Shown here: positions 2,024-59,445 of the stretch, in pieces
Layout of the letters: each line of letters opens with the position of its first letter
How positions within the stretch are numbered: position 1 is the stretch's first letter
Notes under the pieces: generated by a model
Database searches by the model: none
What the model was told of the DNA's origin: nothing
The model's input: only the letters and a program-made list of their open reading frames with translations
Made by a program: the position numbers and the translations under genes
Assembly (NCBI GenBank): GCA_023250195.1
Contig: JAHFBF010000001.1
Span: forward strand, 273,907 to 337,906
From: Candidatus Melainabacteria bacterium
GTDB taxonomy: Bacteria > Cyanobacteriota > Vampirovibrionia > 2-02-FULL-35-15
Length of the DNA: 64,000 nucleotides
Direction: 5' to 3'

Positions 2024-3967
2024 ATGTGCGGCATAGTAGGCATTTATAATTACACAACAAATGAACCGGCAAATAGGCAGATTTTAGAAAAGGCCACCTG
2101 GGCTATTGCTCATAGAGGTCCAGATGAGTTTGGTTATCATTTTGACGATAAAAATGGAGTGGCTTTAGGGAGCAGAAGACTAAGCATCATTGATTTAAGC
2201 ACAGGTAAACAACCTCTCTTTAACGAAGACAACTCAATTTCATTAGTGGGTAATGGAGAAATTTATAATTTTCCGGACCTCTTTGAAGAATTAACATCAA
2301 AAGGACATAAGTTTAAAACAAGATCCGATAATGAAGCAATAATTCATCTCTACGAAATATACGGTACAAAGTGTGTCGAGCATTTAAATGGAATGTTTGC
2401 ATTTGCCTTGTGGGATGAAAATAAAAAACTTTTATTTATTGCCAGAGACAGAATGGGAGTAAAGCCTCTGTATTATGCCCTCCAGAATAATTCTATTTAT
2501 TTTTGTTCAGAACTAAAGGGTTTACTTGCAATTCCTGAAATAAAAAGAGAGTTAAACCCGGAAGCATTAAATAAATATCTTACTTTTGAAAATATTCCTT
2601 CTCCACACTCTATTATTAAAAACATCTTCAAGCTTGAAGCCGGAAATATTTTAACCATTCAAAATGGACATATTAAAAAAGAGCAGTATTGGGATTTGCC
2701 ACTTGATCTTCCAAAATTAAAAATAACCGAGGAAGAGGCTGTTGAAGAATTTGAAAGATTATTCAGTCAATCTGTCAAAAGACGCTTGTTAAGTGATGTT
2801 CCTGTAGGAGTCTTTTTAAGCGGTGGAATTGATTCCAGTCTTGTGGCAAAGTTTATGGCAGAACACTCCAGCGATAAAATTAGAACATTTTCAATTGGTT
2901 TCCATGAGAAATCTTTTGATGAATCAAAAATTGCAATGAAATTCGCAAAAGAGTTAAACAGCGAACATAATCAGTTTCTATTTGACTCTAAAGAATGTTT
3001 AAATTTAATCCCTAATTTAGCTTCTCTTGTAGATGAACCACTCTCTGACGCTTCAATATTACCTACTTACTTTCTGTCACATTTCGCTTCCAAACAATTA
3101 AAAGTCTGCCTTGGAGGAGATGGTGGTGATGAACTTTTCGCCGGGTACCAGATATTTCCAGTTCATAAATTAATAGGACTTTATGATATTATTCCACGTG
3201 AGCTTAAAAAGCTGCTTTTATTTATGGCAAATAAAATGCCGCCAAGAGAAACTTATTTAAGTTTTCCATTTGTACTAAAGCAGTTTTTAAGGGGTGCAGG
3301 ATTATCGACAGAATTTAGAATGTTTGCCTGGATGGGAGCTTATCTGGATAATGAGAAAAAACAATTATTAAACCCTAATATTCAAGACATGATCAATGAA
3401 AACACTTTTGAAGATGTAAGAAATCATCTGAGTAAGAAATTTATTTCTACTGATGAAGATAGAATGCTTTATTTAATTTCAAAACTTTATTTAACAGATG
3501 ACGTGTTGGTAAAAGTAGACAGAGCAAGCATGTTCACAAGTCTTGAAGTCAGAGCACCATTTTTAGATTACACAATTCAGGACTTTGTAGCACAGCTTCC
3601 TTATGACTTAAAGCTAAGCAGATTGACTTCCAAATACCTGCTTAAAAAAATGGCCAAAAAACATATTCCAAATTACATAATAAACAGAAAAAAGCAGGGC
3701 TTTGCAATACCTGTCACTAAATGGCTCAAGCATGAATTAAAAGACACCCTACTACACTACACAAGCAAAAGTTATATCGATAACCAGGGTTTATTTAATC
3801 ATGACTTTATAGAAAAAATTGTGCAAAACCACTTAAACGAGACCTGGGATAATAAAAAACTTTTATGGAATCTTTTAGTTTTTCAAATTTGGTATGAAAA
3901 ATATAAACCGTCTATTGGAAGTATCGGTGAAACTAAGCCAGATAAAGGATTAACAGTTAGAGTTTAA
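2024..3967 (+). CDS. asnB: asparagine synthetase (glutamine-hydrolysing) family amidotransferase
   Basis: N-terminal MCGIVG (Cys2 nucleophile of class II GATase) and SGGIDSS PP-loop; 647 aa. Confidence 0.8.
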   Translation: MCGIVGIYNYTTNEPANRQILEKATWAIAHRGPDEFGYHFDDKNGVALGSRRLSIIDLSTGKQPLFNEDNSISLVGNGEIYNFPDLFEELTSKGHKFKTRSDNEAIIHLYEIYGTKCVEHLNGMFAFALWDENKKLLFIARDRMGVKPLYYALQNNSIYFCSELKGLLAIPEIKRELNPEALNKYLTFENIPSPHSIIKNIFKLEAGNILTIQNGHIKKEQYWDLPLDLPKLKITEEEAVEEFERLFSQSVKRRLLSDVPVGVFLSGGIDSSLVAKFMAEHSSDKIRTFSIGFHEKSFDESKIAMKFAKELNSEHNQFLFDSKECLNLIPNLASLVDEPLSDASILPTYFLSHFASKQLKVCLGGDGGDELFAGYQIFPVHKLIGLYDIIPRELKKLLLFMANKMPPRETYLSFPFVLKQFLRGAGLSTEFRMFAWMGAYLDNEKKQLLNPNIQDMINENTFEDVRNHLSKKFISTDEDRMLYLISKLYLTDDVLVKVDRASMFTSLEVRAPFLDYTIQDFVAQLPYDLKLSRLTSKYLLKKMAKKHIPNYIINRKKQGFAIPVTKWLKHELKDTLLHYTSKSYIDNQGLFNHDFIEKIVQNHLNETWDNKKLLWNLLVFQIWYEKYKPSIGSIGETKPDKGLTVRV

Positions 3968-5968: not shown

Positions 5969-7162
5969 ATGCACCTAAAGAAACTAAAACTAGTTAACTA
6001 TAGAAATTACCTGGATTTTGAGGGTAAATTTCATCACTTAAAAACAATTATTATTGGCCAAAACGCTCAGGGAAAAACAAATATACTGGAAGCAATAAAT
6101 ATTCTTGCAACTGCTCAGTCAGACCGGGCAGAAAAAGACAATGATCTTGTTTACTGGAATAAAGAACATGCTCTGCTTTTTGCAACAGTAGGTGCAGGTC
6201 GGGACCTGCACCTACTGGAGATTGCACTGCAAATAAATTCAAGCGGCAGAAGAAAATTAAAAATAAATGACATAGCAAAAAAAGCTCCTCAGGCAGATTT
6301 GCTTGGAAACTTTTTTGCAGTAATGTTTTCCTGTGATGATCTTTATCTTATAAAAGGTTCCCCATCAATTAGAAGAAACTGGTTAGACTCTGTCATTTTT
6401 CAACTGGATTCAAAATACCACAGGACAATGCAGAGTTACCAAAAATCGATCACACAAAAAAACGCTCTTTTAAAAAATGCAAGAGAAATCGGAATGTCAA
6501 GAAAAACGCTAAAAGAACAGCTTGAAATCTGGAATGAGCAAATAATAAATTCAGGCTCAGACGTACTAAGCACTCGGCTGGATTTTATAAAAGAAATTAG
6601 ACCGATTGCAAAAGACTTTCAGGACAACATCTCCAAGCATACAGAAGCCCTGGATTTGATTTACAAATCTACCATTGAAACAGATAAAAATGTCATTGCC
6701 AGGAGCCAAAGCCACGAGCAAAGCGCGGCAGTCAGTGACAAGGAGACATTAAAAACTCAATTTAAAAAAGCCTTGGACAATTCTTTCGATGAAGAGCTTG
6801 CAAGAGGTCAATCTGTTATTGGTCCTCATAGAGACGATCTGATTTTTTTAATTAATGAAAAAGAGGCAAAATCATTTGCAAGTCAGGGACAACAAAGATC
6901 AATCGTTCTTGCTATAAAACTTGCAGAGTTAAAAATAATTGAAAAAAGAAAAGACGAAATTCCTGTTTTACTTTTGGATGATGTATTTGCCGAACTTGAT
7001 GAAAGCAGGCAGGATTTTTTACTTCACAATTTACCTAAAAACATACAAACATTTCTTACTACTACACACCTGAGTAATATTCAAAAAGAGTTTCTTAAAG
7101 GAGCACAAATACTTGAAATTAAAAATGGACAGGTCGTAGAAAACGCAGAGTGCCGTATATAG
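5969..7162 (+). CDS. recF: DNA replication and repair protein RecF
   Basis: Walker A GQNAQGKTN; RecF-type N-terminus MHLKKLKLVNYRNY; ABC signature region; sits in the recF - DUF721 - gyrB order. Confidence 0.9.
   Translation: MHLKKLKLVNYRNYLDFEGKFHHLKTIIIGQNAQGKTNILEAINILATAQSDRAEKDNDLVYWNKEHALLFATVGAGRDLHLLEIALQINSSGRRKLKINDIAKKAPQADLLGNFFAVMFSCDDLYLIKGSPSIRRNWLDSVIFQLDSKYHRTMQSYQKSITQKNALLKNAREIGMSRKTLKEQLEIWNEQIINSGSDVLSTRLDFIKEIRPIAKDFQDNISKHTEALDLIYKSTIETDKNVIARSQSHEQSAAVSDKETLKTQFKKALDNSFDEELARGQSVIGPHRDDLIFLINEKEAKSFASQGQQRSIVLAIKLAELKIIEKRKDEIPVLLLDDVFAELDESRQDFLLHNLPKNIQTFLTTTHLSNIQKEFLKGAQILEIKNGQVVENAECRI
6187..6216. repeat. Family-P short GC-rich palindrome (agtaggtgcaggtc gg gacctgcacctact) inside the recF coding sequence, in frame (encodes VGAGRDLHLL)
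   Basis: 14-bp perfect arms, 30 nt total, inside an otherwise AT-rich gene. Near-identical to the palindrome at 58611-58637. Confidence 0.75.
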
Positions 7163-7209: not shown

Positions 7210-7536
7210 ATGCCAGATCTAAATAAAAAAACCAGAAGAGGAAACTTAACAAAAATCGGGGAAATTATTCCGGCGATAAAAGAGAATTTGGGGCTTGAAA
7301 AAAGTTTAAAAATTACAGCCCTAAAAGAGCTCTGGCCTTTAGTAACCAGTTTTGAAATTGCAAAATACAGTCAGCCAGCCTATTTTGATAATGAAGAAAA
7401 TCTGGTCATTGCAGTAAAAAGTGGACCACTTGCAACAGAATTATCCATGCATAAAATAGGCATTTTAGCGCAATTAAAAGAAGCTATTAAAAATACAGAT
7501 ATTACATTTAAAGATATTAGGTTTATAAACAGATAA
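7210..7536 (+). CDS. DUF721 (DciA-like) small protein
   Basis: 108 aa; conserved position between recF and gyrB; ...WPLV...LVIAVKSGPLATELS pattern. Confidence 0.55.
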   Translation: MPDLNKKTRRGNLTKIGEIIPAIKENLGLEKSLKITALKELWPLVTSFEIAKYSQPAYFDNEENLVIAVKSGPLATELSMHKIGILAQLKEAIKNTDITFKDIRFINR

Positions 7537-9760: not shown

Positions 9761-10387
9761 ATGTCTCATGAAATCTCACTTAGAGCTCTCAGTATCCTAG
9801 CTGTCAAGCTTAGAGCATTTGAGGTTACTAACAGACCCAGACTAATTCGCAGTGCAACTAGCATAGATTCAGATTATTCTCCTCGAGTTAGACAAGCTGC
9901 AATACTGGCTATACTAGATAGCGGCAAAGTTGAAGAAAACGAAGTACTGGATTTATTTTCCATTATTAAGGATCCTGAAAATCATTTTCCAATCCTGGGA
10001 AATGATGACAATGCTAAAACAAATAATCTGGTTTTAAAAGTTGACGCTGCAGTAGCAATTGTGAAATTTGCACTGAAACACACAACTTTTAAAGATATAA
10101 GAGCTGAATTTATATCTGAACTTGGAAGCATTTTAGATTCAATGGAAAAAGATGAATTATTCAAAAGCTTACATACAAAATTAACCAGTGATAAATTACC
10201 AAAAAGAAATCTTGCTGAATTTGAAAACTATTATTGGGGTGGATTCAAAAGCCTTCTAGCTACCTTATACATAGCTGAAAAAGAACTATTGACAGACGAA
10301 ACTTTATCTTCTCACTACTTTGAAAAATATACAGGTCTCATAGATAAAAAAGACATACTACTCGGTATAAACTTTAAAGAAATTTGA
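9761..10387 (+). CDS. hypothetical protein (HEAT-like helical repeats?)
   Basis: 208-aa ORF with no recognisable catalytic motif. Confidence 0.4.
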   Translation: MSHEISLRALSILAVKLRAFEVTNRPRLIRSATSIDSDYSPRVRQAAILAILDSGKVEENEVLDLFSIIKDPENHFPILGNDDNAKTNNLVLKVDAAVAIVKFALKHTTFKDIRAEFISELGSILDSMEKDELFKSLHTKLTSDKLPKRNLAEFENYYWGGFKSLLATLYIAEKELLTDETLSSHYFEKYTGLIDKKDILLGINFKEI

Positions 10388-20376: not shown

Positions 20377-21657
20377 ATGAACTTAAAAACACTACAAAAA
20401 AAATATAATTTATCTGATCTAGAATTATTTAGTCAGAATACCTCTAGTCATAAAATCTCTTTTACAGCAAATAAATTAAAACAAACAGAATCTACTTATA
20501 CTTCAGGAAATGCATTAAGACTTATAAAAAACAAAAAATTTGGATTTTCAGCAAATTATGGGAGATGTAATCTGGAAGAAATGCTTAATCAGGCACTTGA
20601 GGCTTCCAGCTTTTCCAAAGAAATTAATTTTGAACTACCGGATAAAATTCATAAATTTGAAGAAATTAAAACCAATAAAGAATCTTTATCTTCATATATA
20701 GAAAAGGGGAAAGAAATTATAGAAGAGATTTTATCTCAGGCTCCAAATGTACTTACAGATATCTCTTTCGAAATAAATGATATTAAAGAAAAGATTGAAA
20801 ATAGTAAGGATTTAAATTATTCTTACTCAAAAGAACTATATTCATTCTCAATTAACATTAAAGAAACTCTCGAAAATGATTTTTTTGATATTTATACTGC
20901 TTTCGTAGATGGTAGATTCCCTGACTGCAGAACTTACGCCAATGAACTTATTCAATACTATGAATTATCAAAAAAACATTCAAGAATAAAAAATGGTTCA
21001 TTTCCTGTTTTATTTACAAGCAAAGCAGCAAAAGAATTACTTGAAATAATAGAACTTGCATTAAACGGTAAACAGATAAACCAGAAATCCTCACCCTGGC
21101 ATAATATGCTTGGCAAAAAGATTTTAAGTGAACTAATTACAATCAGACAGGATCCTGCTTTTGGTTATATGGCAAGGTCAATAGACGATGAAGGAAGCCA
21201 AATAAAACCTTTGGTACTTATAAATAATGGTATATTAGAAAATTTTTATTTTGACTTATCCACCGGTAGAGACGCTATTAATCGCACCTCTACCGGGAAT
21301 GGTTTCAAATCATCCCTGACTTCTCAACCTGAGCCAGCACTGTTAAATATGATAATTTCAGCAGGCTCATCTTCCATAAATAAAATAATAAAAGACATTA
21401 ATTACGGTTTGTTGATTGATCAGACAATGGGCGGATTAACCACAAATATTTCAGGAGATTTGTCTGTTAATGTAGACATTGGATTTTTAATTGAAAAAGG
21501 AGAAATCACAGGCAGGGTAAAAGACACAATGGTTACAGGAAATATTTATTCTGCTTTAAACAATGTAGTTGAATTGTCAAATAATTTAAAACAACACTGG
21601 TCAAATGTTTATAATCCAGATATGTTGATTGATGGACTTACAATTACATCAAAGTAG
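20377..21657 (+). CDS. TldD/PmbA family metalloprotease-like protein
   Basis: C-terminal ...STGNGF...GLLIDQTMGG...GDLSVNVDIGFLIEKGEITGRVKDTMVTGNIYSALNNV matches the TldD/PmbA fold pattern. Confidence 0.7.
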   Translation: MNLKTLQKKYNLSDLELFSQNTSSHKISFTANKLKQTESTYTSGNALRLIKNKKFGFSANYGRCNLEEMLNQALEASSFSKEINFELPDKIHKFEEIKTNKESLSSYIEKGKEIIEEILSQAPNVLTDISFEINDIKEKIENSKDLNYSYSKELYSFSINIKETLENDFFDIYTAFVDGRFPDCRTYANELIQYYELSKKHSRIKNGSFPVLFTSKAAKELLEIIELALNGKQINQKSSPWHNMLGKKILSELITIRQDPAFGYMARSIDDEGSQIKPLVLINNGILENFYFDLSTGRDAINRTSTGNGFKSSLTSQPEPALLNMIISAGSSSINKIIKDINYGLLIDQTMGGLTTNISGDLSVNVDIGFLIEKGEITGRVKDTMVTGNIYSALNNVVELSNNLKQHWSNVYNPDMLIDGLTITSK

Positions 21658-37902: not shown

Positions 37903-37917
37903 CTTTAAGCGTCATTG

Positions 37918-38015
37918 CGAGGGCTTTAGCCCGAAGCAATCTCATCAACTTTTTCACATTTATGAGATTGCTTCGTCAGTCCTCCGGACTTCCTCGCAAT
38001 GACGTGTCACGTTTT
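37918..38015. repeat. Family-A RPE-like element, copy A4, overlapping the 3' end of lspA (supplies the last 13 codons of the ORF)
   Basis: gcgtcattgcgagggctttagcccgaagcaatctc...gagattgcttcgtcagtcctccggacttcctcgcaatgacgtg. Confidence 0.75.
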
Positions 38016-51042: not shown

Positions 51043-52062
51043 CTATTCCGCATGCATATTAATATTTCTCGTCATTCTGGATAAATTATTAAATAAATTA
51101 CCACCAAATGAGGCAGCTATTAACTGAATAGTCCAATCAACTGTCTGCCCTCTTAAATCTTTACGTTCTAGTCTCGGAGCCACTTCCATAATTTCAAAAC
51201 CAGCCAATCTATCAGTCAGTCTTATTCTTTTATTTATAGCTCTGGCAAGCACAAGCCCCTCTCTAAGATTTAACTGGCTGTCACCACTTGTACCAGTACC
51301 TGTAACATTCATTGAATCTATATCCCAGGCTATATATACGTACTTAACTCTTTTCAAAAGATAATTTAGAGCTTCATCAACAATCTTATTTATCCCCCTA
51401 CTATCAATATCTTCCATTAAATACCATTTTGTATTTGGTTTAATATAACTTTTTTCACCAATTGCAATCTGAACAAAATTTTCCGGTTTTACTTTCGGCA
51501 ACTTTTTATTTTTCCCTATCATTAATAATTTTTGAAAATCAGGGTGTGAATCATAGTTTTTATTTGCAATAGCTACTGCAACAGGCATTCCATGTGCTCT
51601 CCACGATGGTGTATTTTTAGGAGAATGTGCATCAAAATGACGATCTATCCATAAAACCCCTGTAGTGGCAGGTTTTAAACCTGCCACTACACCAGAAATT
51701 GTCCCAATAGCAAGGCTATGATCACCACCTATTGTTAGCGGAATAGAAGCATTTTTAATTTCTCTTGAAACGGTTTTTGAAAGCCACTCATTAACCTTAA
51801 TTATTGATTCTATATTTTTAATTCTATTTTTTTTGTTTGTTGATTTATTAGTAGAAACATAAGTCATTAAGTCTTTATCGGGTTTAATGATTTTCACATT
51901 GAACCCTAATTCAATTAAATCATCTGAAAGACCATTGGACATCAACGCTTTAGGACCATCTTTAGCAGCATCATTTGGTCCACCAATGGAAAAAGGTGCA
52001 AGAATTATTGAAATGTTACGTTTTCTATTTCTATTTGCCATTATCTTTTCACAAAAGACCAT
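51043..52062 (-). CDS. ureohydrolase family protein (agmatinase/arginase-like) with a partly non-canonical metal-site motif
   Basis: GGDHS, DAHSP (canonical DAHxD), DIDSMNVTGTGTSG blocks. Confidence 0.55.
   Translation of the reverse strand: MVFCEKIMANRNRKRNISIILAPFSIGGPNDAAKDGPKALMSNGLSDDLIELGFNVKIIKPDKDLMTYVSTNKSTNKKNRIKNIESIIKVNEWLSKTVSREIKNASIPLTIGGDHSLAIGTISGVVAGLKPATTGVLWIDRHFDAHSPKNTPSWRAHGMPVAVAIANKNYDSHPDFQKLLMIGKNKKLPKVKPENFVQIAIGEKSYIKPNTKWYLMEDIDSRGINKIVDEALNYLLKRVKYVYIAWDIDSMNVTGTGTSGDSQLNLREGLVLARAINKRIRLTDRLAGFEIMEVAPRLERKDLRGQTVDWTIQLIAASFGGNLFNNLSRMTRNINMHAE
51662..51690. repeat. Family-P-like palindrome (gtagtggcagg-ttttaaa-cctgccactac) inside the ureohydrolase coding sequence
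   Basis: 11-bp perfect arms; arm sequence resembles GTAGGTGCAGG of the recF and nadE copies. Confidence 0.6.
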
Positions 52063-56050: not shown

Positions 56051-56890
56051 ATGGGTTTTATATTCTTGATTATCAAAAACAAAATCATTTTATTACCTGT
56101 TATATTTGTTTTTTCAATCTTAGTTCTGGTCATATTATCGTACATGGGATTTGGTTTTGGTAAATATTCTTTTGATTTTCAGGATCAGGAGATAATTCTC
56201 CAATCACCTTCATTTGAACACCCCCTTGGCACAGATCAACTTGGAAGAGATATGCTGGCAAGATTAATTTTTGGAGCAAGATTATCTTTTTTAGTTGCTG
56301 TTGTAACTGCCTTAATTGCTCTCTTTATAGGCGTTTCCCTGGGTAGTATTGCCGGGATGCTTGAAGGCAAGATTGATTTTATTATTTCAAGAGCAATCGA
56401 CATAATTTATTCTTTGCCTGATCTTTTAGTCTTAAGTATTATAGGACTACTGTTTAACAGATCTACCAGTGGCATACTCTTTGCTATAGGCTTAATCAGC
56501 TGGATGGATTTAGCCAGATTAACCAGAGCAGAAATTCTAAAACTAAAACAGCATGAATTTATTCTTTCGGCAGTAGCAATTGGATTGAGTAAAAGAAGAA
56601 TTTTTTTAAAGCATCTACTACCAAATATTTTAAATGTGATTTTAGTTTCAATTACATTTATCATGCCAAGAGCAATTATTGCCGAATCAACTTTAAGTTT
56701 TCTTGGACTTGGACTTTCCCCGCCAAACTGCAGTTGGGGAACATTAGCCAGTGATGGCTGGCAATTTTTAAATACACATACAAATCTTATTCTTTATCCA
56801 AGCATTATGATTATGCTTACTGTTCTAAGCTTAAACATAATTGGTGATTTTTTAACCGAATTGAATCAACCTAAGAAGATTTATATATAA
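56051..56890 (+). CDS. ABC transporter permease (DppC/OppC family), orphan
   Basis: EAA-like loop and 6-TM pattern; N-terminal ...PLGTDQLGRDMLARLIFG... Confidence 0.75.
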   Translation: MGFIFLIIKNKIILLPVIFVFSILVLVILSYMGFGFGKYSFDFQDQEIILQSPSFEHPLGTDQLGRDMLARLIFGARLSFLVAVVTALIALFIGVSLGSIAGMLEGKIDFIISRAIDIIYSLPDLLVLSIIGLLFNRSTSGILFAIGLISWMDLARLTRAEILKLKQHEFILSAVAIGLSKRRIFLKHLLPNILNVILVSITFIMPRAIIAESTLSFLGLGLSPPNCSWGTLASDGWQFLNTHTNLILYPSIMIMLTVLSLNIIGDFLTELNQPKKIYI

Positions 56891-56920
56891 TGTAGGGGCG
56901 TTGCATGCAACGCCCCTACA
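56891..56920. repeat. 30-nt perfect palindrome tgtaggggcgttgca|tgcaacgcccctaca exactly between the permease stop and the nadE ATG
   Basis: 15-bp arms with no loop; GC-rich island. Confidence 0.75.
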
Positions 56921-56921
56921 T

Positions 56922-58610
56922 ATGAAAATTGCACTTGCACAAATTAACCCAACAGTTGGAGATTTCGAAAACAACCTGAATAAAATTTTAGAAGCTATTG
57001 ATCACGCAGGTAAAAAAAATGCTGAGCTGGTTATTTTTTCAGAACTTGCTTTATGCGGTTATCCACCAAAAGATTTGTTATTAAAAAACCAATTTATAGA
57101 AGACAGCAAAAAGTATTTAAATAAACTGGCTGACAGCATAAAAGCTGGAATTACTGTTATAGTTGGATTTCCAGAAGAGAATAAAGGCAGTGGCAAACCA
57201 TTATTTGATTCCCTTGCAGTAGTTCAAACAGGCAAAGTCCTATGTACAAGACAAAAAATTCTACTGCCGACTTATGATGTTTTTGATGAGGATAGATACT
57301 TTGAACACGGGGAAATAATTAGTCCTATTGAACTTTTCAATCAGAAAATAGGATTAACTATATGTGAAGATATCTGGCATGATGATTTAAGCTGGACCAA
57401 GCCAAGATACCATCTTGACCCGGTTGCAGAGCTTTCAAAACAAAATATCAATTTAATAATCAATTCTTCTGCTTCACCCTATTTTATGGGAAAACCCACA
57501 TTGAGAGAAGACATCTTAAGAAATTGCGCAAAGAAATATAAATTGCCGATTATTTATGTTAATCAGGTTGGCGGAAATGATGAACTGATCTTTGACGGCA
57601 ATTCATGTGTAATAGATGGAGCTGGAAATGTATGCATGAAATTAAAATCTTTTGAAGAAGATTTACAGATCGTTGAACTTAACGATAACAATCAAATCAT
57701 TGTTAATAGAGACACACCACCGGCACATCTCTACCATGACAACAATGATATCGAGGAATTGCTGCAGGCTATAACCTGCGGGCTTCGTGATTATGTAAAA
57801 AAATGTGATTTTAAAAAAGTTATTGTTGGTTTATCAGGCGGTATTGATTCAGCCCTTGTAGCAGCCATTGCTGCTTATGCCATAGGGAAAGAAAACGTTC
57901 TATGTGTATTTATGCCTTCAAGATACACTTCAGAAGCAAGTTCCAGCGATGCACAAAATTTAGCCTCAAATCTTGGTATTGAATTAAATACTATTTCAAT
58001 AGAAGAACCATTTAAAGTATTTTTACAACTTTTTGAGTCAGCTTTTACGAATAGCAGCACGCCCTGGTATGCCTCTACAACCAAGGAAAATATTCAACCG
58101 CGAATACGTGGTCTAATTCTAATGGCGCTTTCAAATCAAAACAAAGCTCTGGTCCTATCTACAGGAAATAAAAGTGAAATTGGAACTGGATATTGCACAT
58201 TATACGGTGATATGTGCGGGGGTCTGGCAATAATTTCAGATCTTCCAAAAACATTAGTTTATAAACTTGCAGAGTATATAAATAAAAAAGAGGGTAAAGA
58301 ATTAATTCCAAAAAATATTCTTACAAAAGCTCCAACTGCCGAATTAAAATTAAATCAAACCGATCAAGATGTATTGCCTTCCTACGACGTTTTGGATAAA
58401 GTTTTAAACTTTTATGTAGAACAACATGCTCCCTTAAAAGAAATAATAAAGAATGGTATACCTAAAGATACAGTTGAAAAAATTTGTAATATGATTAACT
58501 TAAGTGAGTATAAAAGATATCAGTCAGCGCCTGGATTAAAACTAACAAGCAGATCTTTTGGTTATGGTTGGAGAATGCCAATTGCACAACGATATAAAGA
58601 AACAATCTAA
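56922..58610 (+). CDS. nadE: glutamine-dependent NAD+ synthetase (nitrilase domain plus NAD synthetase domain)
   Basis: N-terminal CN-hydrolase domain (E...K...C triad region ...GLTICED...) and C-terminal SGGIDS PP-loop. ATG at 56922 preferred over the TTG at 56901, which lies inside the palindrome. Confidence 0.85.
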   Translation: MKIALAQINPTVGDFENNLNKILEAIDHAGKKNAELVIFSELALCGYPPKDLLLKNQFIEDSKKYLNKLADSIKAGITVIVGFPEENKGSGKPLFDSLAVVQTGKVLCTRQKILLPTYDVFDEDRYFEHGEIISPIELFNQKIGLTICEDIWHDDLSWTKPRYHLDPVAELSKQNINLIINSSASPYFMGKPTLREDILRNCAKKYKLPIIYVNQVGGNDELIFDGNSCVIDGAGNVCMKLKSFEEDLQIVELNDNNQIIVNRDTPPAHLYHDNNDIEELLQAITCGLRDYVKKCDFKKVIVGLSGGIDSALVAAIAAYAIGKENVLCVFMPSRYTSEASSSDAQNLASNLGIELNTISIEEPFKVFLQLFESAFTNSSTPWYASTTKENIQPRIRGLILMALSNQNKALVLSTGNKSEIGTGYCTLYGDMCGGLAIISDLPKTLVYKLAEYINKKEGKELIPKNILTKAPTAELKLNQTDQDVLPSYDVLDKVLNFYVEQHAPLKEIIKNGIPKDTVEKICNMINLSEYKRYQSAPGLKLTSRSFGYGWRMPIAQRYKETI

Positions 58611-58637
58611 CGTAGGTGCAGGCGACCTGCACCTACG
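58611..58637. repeat. Family-P palindrome cgtaggtgcagg-cga-cctgcacctacg between the nadE stop and the mqnA-like start
   Basis: 12-bp arms, 3-nt loop; near-identical arms to the recF copy. Confidence 0.75.
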
Positions 58638-58638
58638 A

Positions 58639-59445
58639 ATGGGACAGGTAGATTTTATTAACTGTCTGCCTATCAATCTTCCAATTGAACTTGGTGAAGT
58701 AACGGTTAATGCAACCATCATAAATGCTGTACCAAGTGAATTAAATAAAAAGATTTTAAGTGGGGAAATAGATATTGCACCGATATCATCCTACACGTAT
58801 CTTCAAAACAAAGATAAACTGGTCCAAATCTCCGATCTCTGCATAGCATCAAATGGTCCGGCAGACAGTGTTCTATTGTTTTCACAGTTTCCAATAGAAG
58901 AACTTGATGGAGCAAAAATTGCATTATCACCTGCATCTGCTACATCAAACAAATTGTTAAAAATTATATTAAGAGAATTTATAAAAGTTAACGCTGTCTA
59001 TAAAGTAGAGGCGTTACATACAGCACCTCTACAATCAAAAAATTATCCAGCTGCACTTTTTATAGGAGATCATGCACTCTTGGAATTCTCAAATATGCCA
59101 AGAAATCTGTTTATTTATGACCTTGGTTCTCTATGGAAAAAATATACAGGATTACCAATGATTTTCGGAATCTGGGTTGCAAGAAAAGAAATCATAAACC
59201 AATATCCAAACGAAGTTAAAATAATATCAAATCAGCTAGAAAAATCAAAGGAACTTGGCTTAACAACAATGTTTGATAAGGTTATTAAAAAAGCACAGGA
59301 AAAAGTTTTAATTTCAACAGAGTTTTACAGTACTTATTTTCAGCATTTGAGTTACGAATTTAATACTGAATGTAAAAAAGGATTAGAGTTGTTTGAAAAT
59401 TTATCAATTAAAAAACACAATGCAGTCACAAAATCACTCGTATAA
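58639..59445 (+). CDS. mqnA: MqnA/MqnD-family (futalosine pathway) periplasmic-binding-fold protein
   Basis: MGQVDFINCLPINLPI... N-terminus typical of chorismate dehydratase MqnA. The ORF-track start at 58558 overlaps the nadE 3' end. Confidence 0.55.
   Translation: MGQVDFINCLPINLPIELGEVTVNATIINAVPSELNKKILSGEIDIAPISSYTYLQNKDKLVQISDLCIASNGPADSVLLFSQFPIEELDGAKIALSPASATSNKLLKIILREFIKVNAVYKVEALHTAPLQSKNYPAALFIGDHALLEFSNMPRNLFIYDLGSLWKKYTGLPMIFGIWVARKEIINQYPNEVKIISNQLEKSKELGLTTMFDKVIKKAQEKVLISTEFYSTYFQHLSYEFNTECKKGLELFENLSIKKHNAVTKSLV

Follow-up and report, generated by a model that had tools for sequence, protein, structure and literature searches.

A putative double-foot GTAG REP element carried in frame by recF in a Melainabacteria lineage

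The GTAG superfamily of repetitive extragenic palindromes (REPs) was defined by Di Nocera, De Gregorio, and Rocco in 2013 (PMC3733652). Intragenic copies are documented in this superfamily, many of them in frame and in replication and repair genes; the supplement of that study gives REP-encoded frame-0 "VGAG..." peptides, and the occurrence of subfamilies with complementary stem variants is a known trait of the family (PMC3733652). "Double foot" REPs, with 5' GT[AG]G at one end and 3' C[TC]AC at the other, were described for subclass 2.4 of the transposase TnpA_REP (RayT), a subclass of which REPs lying in frame inside tnpA_REP genes are a hallmark (Quentin, Siguier, Chandler, and Fichant 2018, PMC6006769). 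The counterpart of this subclass, RAYT group 4, is common in Cyanobacteria, Chlorobia, and Caldilineae and extends over 17 bacterial classes (Bertels, Gallie, and Rainey 2017, PMC5581495). Here we describe a palindrome within the recF gene of a Candidatus Melainabacteria bacterium, found in a stretch of 64,000 nucleotides with a G+C content of ~34% (assembly GCA_023250195.1, contig JAHFBF010000001.1, positions 273,907 to 337,906), which is referred to below as the window. The palindrome is probably a copy of a 25-29-nt double-foot GTAG REP family that colonized the Melainabacteria lineage, was moved by RayT, and was tolerated in a loop of the protein.

The recF gene occupies positions 5969-7162 on the plus strand and was recognized by TIGR00611 (E = 7e-94) and by a match to the RecF structure 5Z67 in the PDB (E = 7e-51). 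Within this gene, positions 6186-6217 read CAGTAGGTGCAGGTC-GG-GACCTGCACCTACTG and form a perfect palindrome in which arms of 15 bp flank a 2-nt center. Judged by its sequence, the core at 6188-6215, GTAGGTGCAGGTC-GG-GACCTGCACCTAC, is an intact double-foot GTAG REP (5' GTAG ... CTAC 3') of the type described for RayT/TnpA_REP subclass 2.4. The initial annotation of the window had reported a palindrome lying in frame within recF and encoding VGAGRDLHLL, and both the TIGR00611 match and the translation, in which this peptide forms residues 74-83, bear out that description. The palindrome is also perfect, as had been claimed, but its size had been underestimated by 2 nt (30 nt with 14-bp arms). 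The accompanying description of recF as an essential gene needs correcting, as recF is not essential as a rule.

The palindromes of the window constitute one dispersed family. Besides the recF copy, six further GTAG...CTAC palindromes or remnants of them were found, two intergenic and four within other genes, which places 5 of the 7 copies within open reading frames (ORFs) and 2 of the 7 between genes. The elements are 25-29 nt long with arms of 12-16 bp, and with the pairing of their flanks the palindromes total 25-32 nt. A GTAG start and a CTAC end are present in all four intact copies and in the copy within mqnA, and the flanks of all four intact copies extend the palindrome by 1-2 bp. Five GTAG...CTAC hairpins with at least nine pairs were counted in the window against 0.165 expected from 200 first-order Markov shuffles, in which the maximum was 1. 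As single-stranded DNA, the four intact copies were predicted to fold at -14.6 to -16.6 kcal/mol with z scores of -7.3 to -9.1 (-16.6 kcal/mol and -9.1 for the recF copy), and 0 of 200 shuffles folded as well. These results uphold the earlier statement that chance occurrence is negligible.

We then compared the recF copy with its orthologous loci. The RecF alignment comprised 82 sequences (the window, 78 relatives of the Melainabacteria clade, and 3 distant outgroups), from which a neighbor-joining tree without support values was built, and the DNA of a single pair of sister alleles was compared; the relatives of RecF, like those of the arginase-family protein described below, carry Melainabacteria labels. 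The ancestral loop of RecF consists of seven residues (I-x-T-K-D-S-E), a length common to the more distant sequences, and most orthologues in the clade are without an insert and retain this conserved loop. Longer loops, of 11-16 residues, occur at scattered points in the tree and frequently beside a close relative with the seven-residue loop (P0025 beside P0042, P0010 beside P0008, P0026 beside P0018 and P0021, and P0043 beside P0030). The filled recF allele of L128 and the empty allele of L129 are 96% identical. L128 contains a perfect 28-nt palindrome, GTAGGGGCAGGTCGCGACCTGCCCCTAC, in place of 10 other bases in L129, for a net change of +18 nt (+28/-10), and mismatches between the two alleles are raised locally around the loop. 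In L129, L003, and L007, the loop is empty; there is no duplication, and some native bases are gone from the filled alleles. The allele of the window has lost a further 12 nt upstream of the REP, and its loop is therefore just two residues longer than the ancestral seven. Thus, the reading frame of recF was kept because native bases were lost along with the gain of the REP.

Among other alleles of the same locus, decaying versions of the REP were found in L130, L002, and L004, and in L006 and L005 the pairing is kept but the sequence of the stem has changed. RecF orthologues that encode the same 10 residues with non-palindromic codons, which the initial annotation had named as the observation that would speak against its reading, were not encountered: most orthologues are without these residues, and the others have palindromic or decaying-palindromic codons.

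The remaining copies of the window are located as follows. The arms of the recF copy recur, as had been noticed before, in an intact REP at 58611-58637 (GTAGGTGCAGG-CGA-CCTGCACCTAC; 12-bp arms). This perfect palindrome occupies the spacer between the stop of nadE and the start of mqnA, and Pfam confirmed its location between the NAD synthase gene (nadE) and the gene for MqnA. The two related palindromes that had been reported near 56891-56920 and 51662-51690 are likewise perfect, and their full extents are 56890-56921 and 51661-51691. The former, the intact REP GTAGGGGCGTTGCATGCAACGCCCCTAC with 16-bp arms, lies between the stop codon of an ABC-permease gene and the start codon of nadE. The latter, an intact 29-nt REP within GTAGTGGCAGGTTT-T-AAACCTGCCACTAC (15-bp arms), lies in frame in an arginase-family gene (51043-52062, minus strand) and encodes VVAGLKPATT. 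A degenerate REP at 59005-59032 (GTAGAGGCGTTACATACAGCACCTCTAC) is in frame in mqnA (VEALHTAPL), a remnant at 57706-57734 (ATAGAGACACACCACCGGCACATCTCTAC) is in frame in nadE (NRDTPPAHLY), and another degenerate REP at 21263-21296 (core GTAGAGACGCTATTAATCGCACCTCTAC) lies in a PmbA/TldD gene, in the other open frame (GRDAINRTST). The intragenic copies use two reading frames only; in the third, the TAG of GTAG would be a stop codon on either strand. Further REP copies are present in the relatives L001, L128, L131, L134, and L135.

The contexts of the two intergenic copies are TAA-T-REP-AT-ATG upstream of nadE (56888-56924) and TAA-C-REP-GA-ATG between nadE and mqnA (58608-58641). Because the REP occupies the whole spacer from stop to start, the ribosome-binding sequences of nadE and mqnA would fall inside the hairpin. 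The same two spacers measure only 6-7 nt in relatives that have no REP there.

Insertion polymorphism was also observed at these other sites. A metagenome search with MqnA returned three loci, a sample sufficient for the comparison of empty sites and too small for statistics. In L131 and L132 (MqnA 76-78% identical), the sites at 56892 and 58612 are empty without any target duplication, reading TAAT-TTTCTC-ATG and TAAC-ATTGGT, respectively. The mqnA copy (59005) is present in both loci at equal length and in a more decayed state, indicating an old shared insertion. The nadE copy is also present in both at the same length and in degenerate form, better preserved in L131 than in the window, and is therefore an older insertion as well. 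L135, a Melainabacteria metagenome-assembled genome (GCA_016193285.1), has a perfect palindrome at the nadE site (3332-3360) where the window has a remnant; a site that has decayed in one lineage can thus hold a perfect copy in another. L135 carries two REPs in its arginase-family gene, and the coordinates of its REPs other than the nadE copy are 10149-10176 and 10337-10365. The copy at 10149-10176 is a perfect representative of the subfamily to which the PmbA/TldD copy (21263) of the window belongs.

In an alignment of 83 arginase-family sequences (82 orthologues and the window), the segment from HSLAIG to WIDRHFD has a short 28-residue form in 68 of the 83. The same REP as in the window was found in P0242, P0269, and P0248/L135. 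The REP of L135 replaces ~5 native codons of the arginase-family gene; the window lacks a further three, so that its net gain amounts to two residues. In P0250/L134 and P0286, a second small GTAG palindrome is nested at the center of the first. The nested REP (L134, 5354-5412, and P0286) is in frame, encodes VVAGF-SAVGRPALGK-KPTTT, and lengthens the loop by 15 residues.

Taken together, these sequence comparisons support the view that the palindromes behave as mobile insertions. The initial annotation had proposed very small palindromic mobile units that land in coding DNA in multiples of three. The family is borne out, the empty orthologous sites (56892, 58612, and the recF loop) are in favor of its mobility, and copies do lie in coding DNA with the frame unbroken. 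By contrast, the idea of a 30-nt unit whose own length is a multiple of three has to be abandoned, since the elements are 25-29 nt long and the unit in recF is 28 nt.

The distribution of the family was determined by scanning one genome per GTDB species for GTAGGNGCAGG-N0-10-CCTGCNCCTAC, which is present in at least 120 loci. Those listed belong to the phyla Chloroflexota, Planctomycetota (Brocadia), Bacteroidota, Cyanobacteriota, Acidobacteriota, Deinococcota, Nitrospirota, and Proteobacteria. This distribution agrees with the range of classes reported for RAYT group 4 (PMC5581495). Among the matches listed, a length of 29 nt is shared by 86 of 122 copies, and the dominant form in the listed loci is the 29-mer GTAGGGGCAGGTTT(G/C)AAACCTGCCCCTAC, nearly identical across many phyla. 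Neighboring copies have the feet GTAGGGGC/GCCCCTAC or GTAGAGAC/GTCTCTAC in common while their palindromic interiors vary, and variants of the window fall in both groups. A RayT homologue with HuH and Y motifs adjoins the palindrome in 5 of the 120 listed loci (L086, L071, L029, L106, and L099). Against a gathering threshold of 23 bits, the Pfam family Y1_Tnp scored 29.8 bits in L086 (E = 7e-7) and, just below the threshold, 22.9 bits in L071 (E = 1e-4). A REP also lies inside the RayT gene itself in L086 and L071, in the latter as a GTAG palindrome in the RayT ORF. RayT homologues number ~8,000 at E ≤ 1e-10; among the best 120 listed, the name "REP element-mobilizing transposase RayT" is given to many by the Joint Genome Institute (JGI).

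In 13 of the 122 cross-phylum copies listed, the flanks prolong the palindrome by 4 bp or more, against 0.5 expected. Together with the nesting of one REP at the hairpin tip of another, this pairing of the flanks suggests insertion into the centers of hairpins. These 13 copies lie within larger palindromes whose outer arms differ by locus, for example in L009, L039, L078, L083, and L117.

In the AlphaFold model of RecF (mean predicted local distance difference test score, 89.3), strands are found at residues 67-76 and 81-90 with a turn at 77-80. Because residues 74-83, encoded by the REP, span the ends of the strands and this turn, they form the tip of a beta-hairpin in the N-terminal ABC lobe, with both strand ends encoded by the DNA arms and the turn by the center of the palindrome. 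The alignment to the RecF structure 5Z67 agrees with this position. Both results are consistent with the initial placement of the insert, by comparison with E. coli RecF, in a loop between strands of the N-terminal ABC domain. VGAGRDLHLL is, most probably, a passenger peptide that RecF tolerates, rather than a functional module, and it is presumably neutral. The gene order recF-dciA-gyrB is conserved across the clade; the small gene following recF in the window (7210-7536) is the counterpart of the DciA gene (PF05258) in the loci of relatives.

Palindromes of other types occur in the same RecF loop of relatives, encoding GEVAQSRL in P0017 and KVCKPHL in P0032. A palindrome at 848-871 of L002, AAGCGAGGTTGCGCAACCTCGCCT, belongs with the peptides SEVAQPRL and GEVAQSRL, and there are also the peptides KVCKPHL/EVCKPHL; the RecF loops concerned are those of P0017, P0032, P0022, and P0028. 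Residues 240-255 of RecF are predicted to be disordered and coincide with a second hot spot for other palindromic repeats. RecF in this clade thus has two recurrent insertion hot spots, as other small palindromes occupy the same two loops. A second palindromic repeat family, unrelated to the REPs, has outer arms GTCATTGCGAGG/CCTCGCAATGAC and inner arms CGAAGCAATCTCA/TGAGATTGCTTCG and forms a nested hairpin of ~95 nt. A full intergenic copy of it lies at 37910-38005 of the window (inner arms, 37932-37948/37959-37975). In L007 (10717-10805), this repeat is in frame in the disordered region of RecF (CVIARSFSDEAISQ...NEIASPSVRND; -21.5 kcal/mol), L006 has a short form at ~2664-2690, and recF of the window contains a decayed remnant at 6692-6739 (VIARSQSHEQSAAVSD).

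The family does not represent a new kind of element, since its features match those published for the GTAG REP superfamily and for the double-foot REPs of subclass 2.4 (PMC3733652, PMC6006769). The features of a REP that were found are a short stem-loop palindrome, GTAG/CTAC ends, dispersed repetition, and insertion polymorphism without target duplication. The extragenic location implied by the name was not found for most of the copies, but an intragenic location does not exclude membership because it is a documented exception (PMC3733652, PMC6006769). In common with the GTAG REP superfamily, the present palindromes have the GTAG tag, a length within the 20-40 bp of that superfamily, and complementary stem changes between subfamilies; units in ORFs encode short VGAG... 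peptides, often in DNA repair genes, and some families are inserted within palindromes (PMC3733652). Like the double-foot REPs of subclass 2.4, they are inserted in frame without disrupting genes, including the RayT genes of L086 and L071, and they are distributed patchily over Cyanobacteria, Bacteroidetes, Chloroflexi, and other phyla, as is RAYT group 4. They differ from subclass 2.4 in that the 5 intragenic copies of the 7 in the window reside in housekeeping genes and not in extragenic DNA, in that their Melainabacteria host lineage is non-photosynthetic and has 34% G+C, and in that the ~195 kb of DNA from this lineage covered so far is without a cognate RayT.

Melainabacteria were not part of the survey of the GTAG superfamily, and recF is absent from the genes given in the text and the consulted supplementary files of that study (PMC3733652). 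Our literature search found no paper tying REPs to Melainabacteria, and a full-text search with the arm sequences (GTAGGGGCAGG and variants) gave unrelated primer matches only. GTAG REPs are therefore apparently new for Melainabacteria and for recF. A bias toward DNA repair genes, as proposed by Di Nocera et al. (PMC3733652), is not supported by the window, in which the other hosts are genes for an arginase-family enzyme, PmbA/TldD, MqnA, and NadE.

Several other classes of repeats were considered and rejected. A REPIN consists of two inverted REPs and a spacer (Bertels and Rainey 2011, PMC3116915), and the intact copies of the window are singletons with no partner half-site within 200 nt. The likeness to REPINs lies in non-autonomous, REP-derived units that are thought to depend on a single-copy RayT, and in a population that persists and decays within a genome (PMC3116915). 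Rickettsia palindromic elements (RPEs) are similar as in-frame palindromes in genes that still function, including replication and repair genes. They are unlike the present family, according to PMC3733652, in that RPE-4 and RPE-6 are CGTC-tagged, RPE-1 is longer, no dedicated transposase is known, and the phylum is another; the GTAG tag and the length of 25-29 nt exclude assignment to the RPEs or to CGTC REPs. A miniature inverted-repeat transposable element (70-300 bp, with terminal inverted repeats and target duplication) does not agree with elements of 25-29 nt that show no duplication in filled/empty pairs. Repeats of a clustered regularly interspaced short palindromic repeat (CRISPR) locus were rejected, since the copies are isolated, kilobases apart, and not in an array, and HIP1 (highly iterated palindrome) was rejected because no GCGATCGC is present in the element. 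Transcription terminators were dismissed as well, because the hairpins are not followed by a T run and start codons adjoin two of the copies. At the gathering threshold, Rfam detected two tRNAs only in the window. The small dispersed repeats of heterocystous cyanobacteria, which Elhai et al. reportedly described in 2008, are said to be mobile repeats of 21-27 nt, some of them hairpins, that occur in conserved sequences and are nested. They would resemble the present family as small, mobile, nested repeats and reportedly have other sequences, without GTAG/CTAC feet.

By analogy with characterized REPs, each strand of the element would adopt a hairpin structure wherever it becomes single-stranded, such as at the replication fork. 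RayT/TnpA_REP, a HuH-tyrosine single-strand nuclease-ligase of subclass 2.4 (RAYT group 4), would recognize the GTAG foot and the stem and would cut and rejoin the DNA, such that copies spread without target-site duplication. In so compact a genome, where spacers measure only a few bases, many insertions would hit genes. Survival of an insertion would then require that it avoid the frame in which the TAG of GTAG is read as a stop codon, that the net change in length be a multiple of three, and that it lie in a tolerant surface loop. That RayT mobilizes the REPs of this organism, and that it does so by a single-strand reaction, is suggested by the same analogy.

Several observations weigh against this interpretation. 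Neither the window nor ~130 kb of DNA from related Melainabacteria (~195 kb in all) yielded a RayT gene in searches with an HuH...Y regular expression and, by tblastn, with two RayT proteins, and none of the best 120 of the ~8,000 RayT homologues has a Melainabacteria label; a mobilizing enzyme in this lineage is therefore inferred. In every clean comparison, native bases were lost at the insertion point (10 nt in recF and ~5 codons in the arginase-family gene), a loss beside insertions that is not predicted by the peel-and-paste model. The boundaries of the insert in recF are identical across scattered lineages, which calls for site-specific insertion or transfer of alleles by recombination. 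In the seven orthologous recF copies, 88% of the cells are paired, with the outer foot decaying first, and the stems contain four pairs with double (compensatory) changes, a covariation score reached by 0 of 500 shuffles; this retention of pairing hints at maintenance or selection. The arginase-family copy is identical to that of L135 at 28 of 29 nt while the genes are 77% identical (P ~ 0.005), which again hints at maintenance or selection and not at a purely neutral passenger; unlike the recF and arginase-family copies, those in mqnA and nadE decay. Finally, the GTAG foot is paired with CTAC here, whereas it is unpaired at one end in the elements of Di Nocera et al. (PMC3733652).

These observations bear on three alternative explanations. 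An origin of the recF palindrome by chance, or as an artefact of assembly, has a vanishingly small probability. Besides the excess of hairpins and the fold scores given above, orthologous copies are present in several relatives, and a RecF that is 99% identical with the same loop occurs in an independent ENA assembly (P0001), making an artefact unlikely. The palindrome could instead be a selected structure, namely, an mRNA or DNA hairpin that tunes expression of recF-dciA-gyrB by making ribosomes pause, by directing RNase processing, or by binding a protein, or else a peptide with which RecF acquires a new surface. The compensatory changes in recF and the nearly unchanged arginase-family copy would fit this idea, as would the location of both intergenic copies exactly from stop to start, where a hairpin could affect translation; effects of REPs on mRNA stability and translation in E. 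coli are known from references cited in PMC6006769. However, most RecF orthologues of the clade do without the insert and conserve the seven-residue loop, decay is tolerated in L002, L004, and L130 and proceeds freely in mqnA and nadE, and the same sequence family occurs in unrelated genes and spacers. Complementary stem variants are moreover known in the family (PMC3733652), so independent insertions can mimic covariation. We regard a selected structure as improbable.

A spread of REP-like elements by means other than RayT seems somewhat less improbable, though still unlikely. The palindromes might be propagated by homologous recombination or gene conversion, among copies as well as among related genomes, by quasi-palindrome templated repair that makes the arms perfect again, or by capture of hairpin oligonucleotides at breaks, in which flanking bases would be lost. 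The ~195 kb of Melainabacteria DNA without RayT, the deletions of 6-15 nt that accompany insertions, and the identical boundaries in recF are consistent with such processes, as are the mismatches raised near the loop between L128 and L129, the excess of listed copies with paired flanks, and the nesting of a REP at the tip of another. On the other hand, the palindrome adjoins RayT genes in the five listed loci of other phyla, and the Melainabacteria DNA covered is a small part of any one genome, in each of which RayT typically occurs as a single copy. New copies at unrelated sites (56892 and 58612) also need a dispersal step beyond conversion. We retain the RayT-moved, loop-tolerated GTAG REP as the probable explanation of the recF palindrome.

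A more far-reaching reading, to which we would give only a modest chance, is that REPs are actively kept perfect in genes, are aimed at the centers of hairpins or palindromes, and arrive by a replacement that deletes 6-15 native bases. The near identity of the arginase-family copies and the retained pairing in recF would fit the first of these ideas, and the complementary flanks and nested REPs the second; the classification given above is not altered by them. If this were true, the two RecF loops and the arginase-family loop would have been colonized repeatedly, with REP peptides replacing native loop residues. It would also imply a mode of REP insertion beyond peel-and-paste and recurrent loop variation in housekeeping proteins.

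With these findings, the known range of GTAG REPs, and by inference that of RayT activity, comes to include Melainabacteria, a sister group of the cyanobacteria that lacks photosynthesis. In-frame REPs in DNA repair genes were already documented, and recF joins these genes; the novelty lies in the lineage and the gene that harbor the element and in the well-resolved series of alleles. Peptides such as VGAGxxPAPT or VGAGRDLxL in conserved proteins flag REP insertions and should not be annotated as real domain features. The ladder of allele states in RecF and the arginase-family protein (empty, filled, nested, trimmed, and decayed) could serve for dating REP activity. It could also probe site-directed insertion versus a selection filter and the absorption of selfish DNA by proteins in their surface loops.

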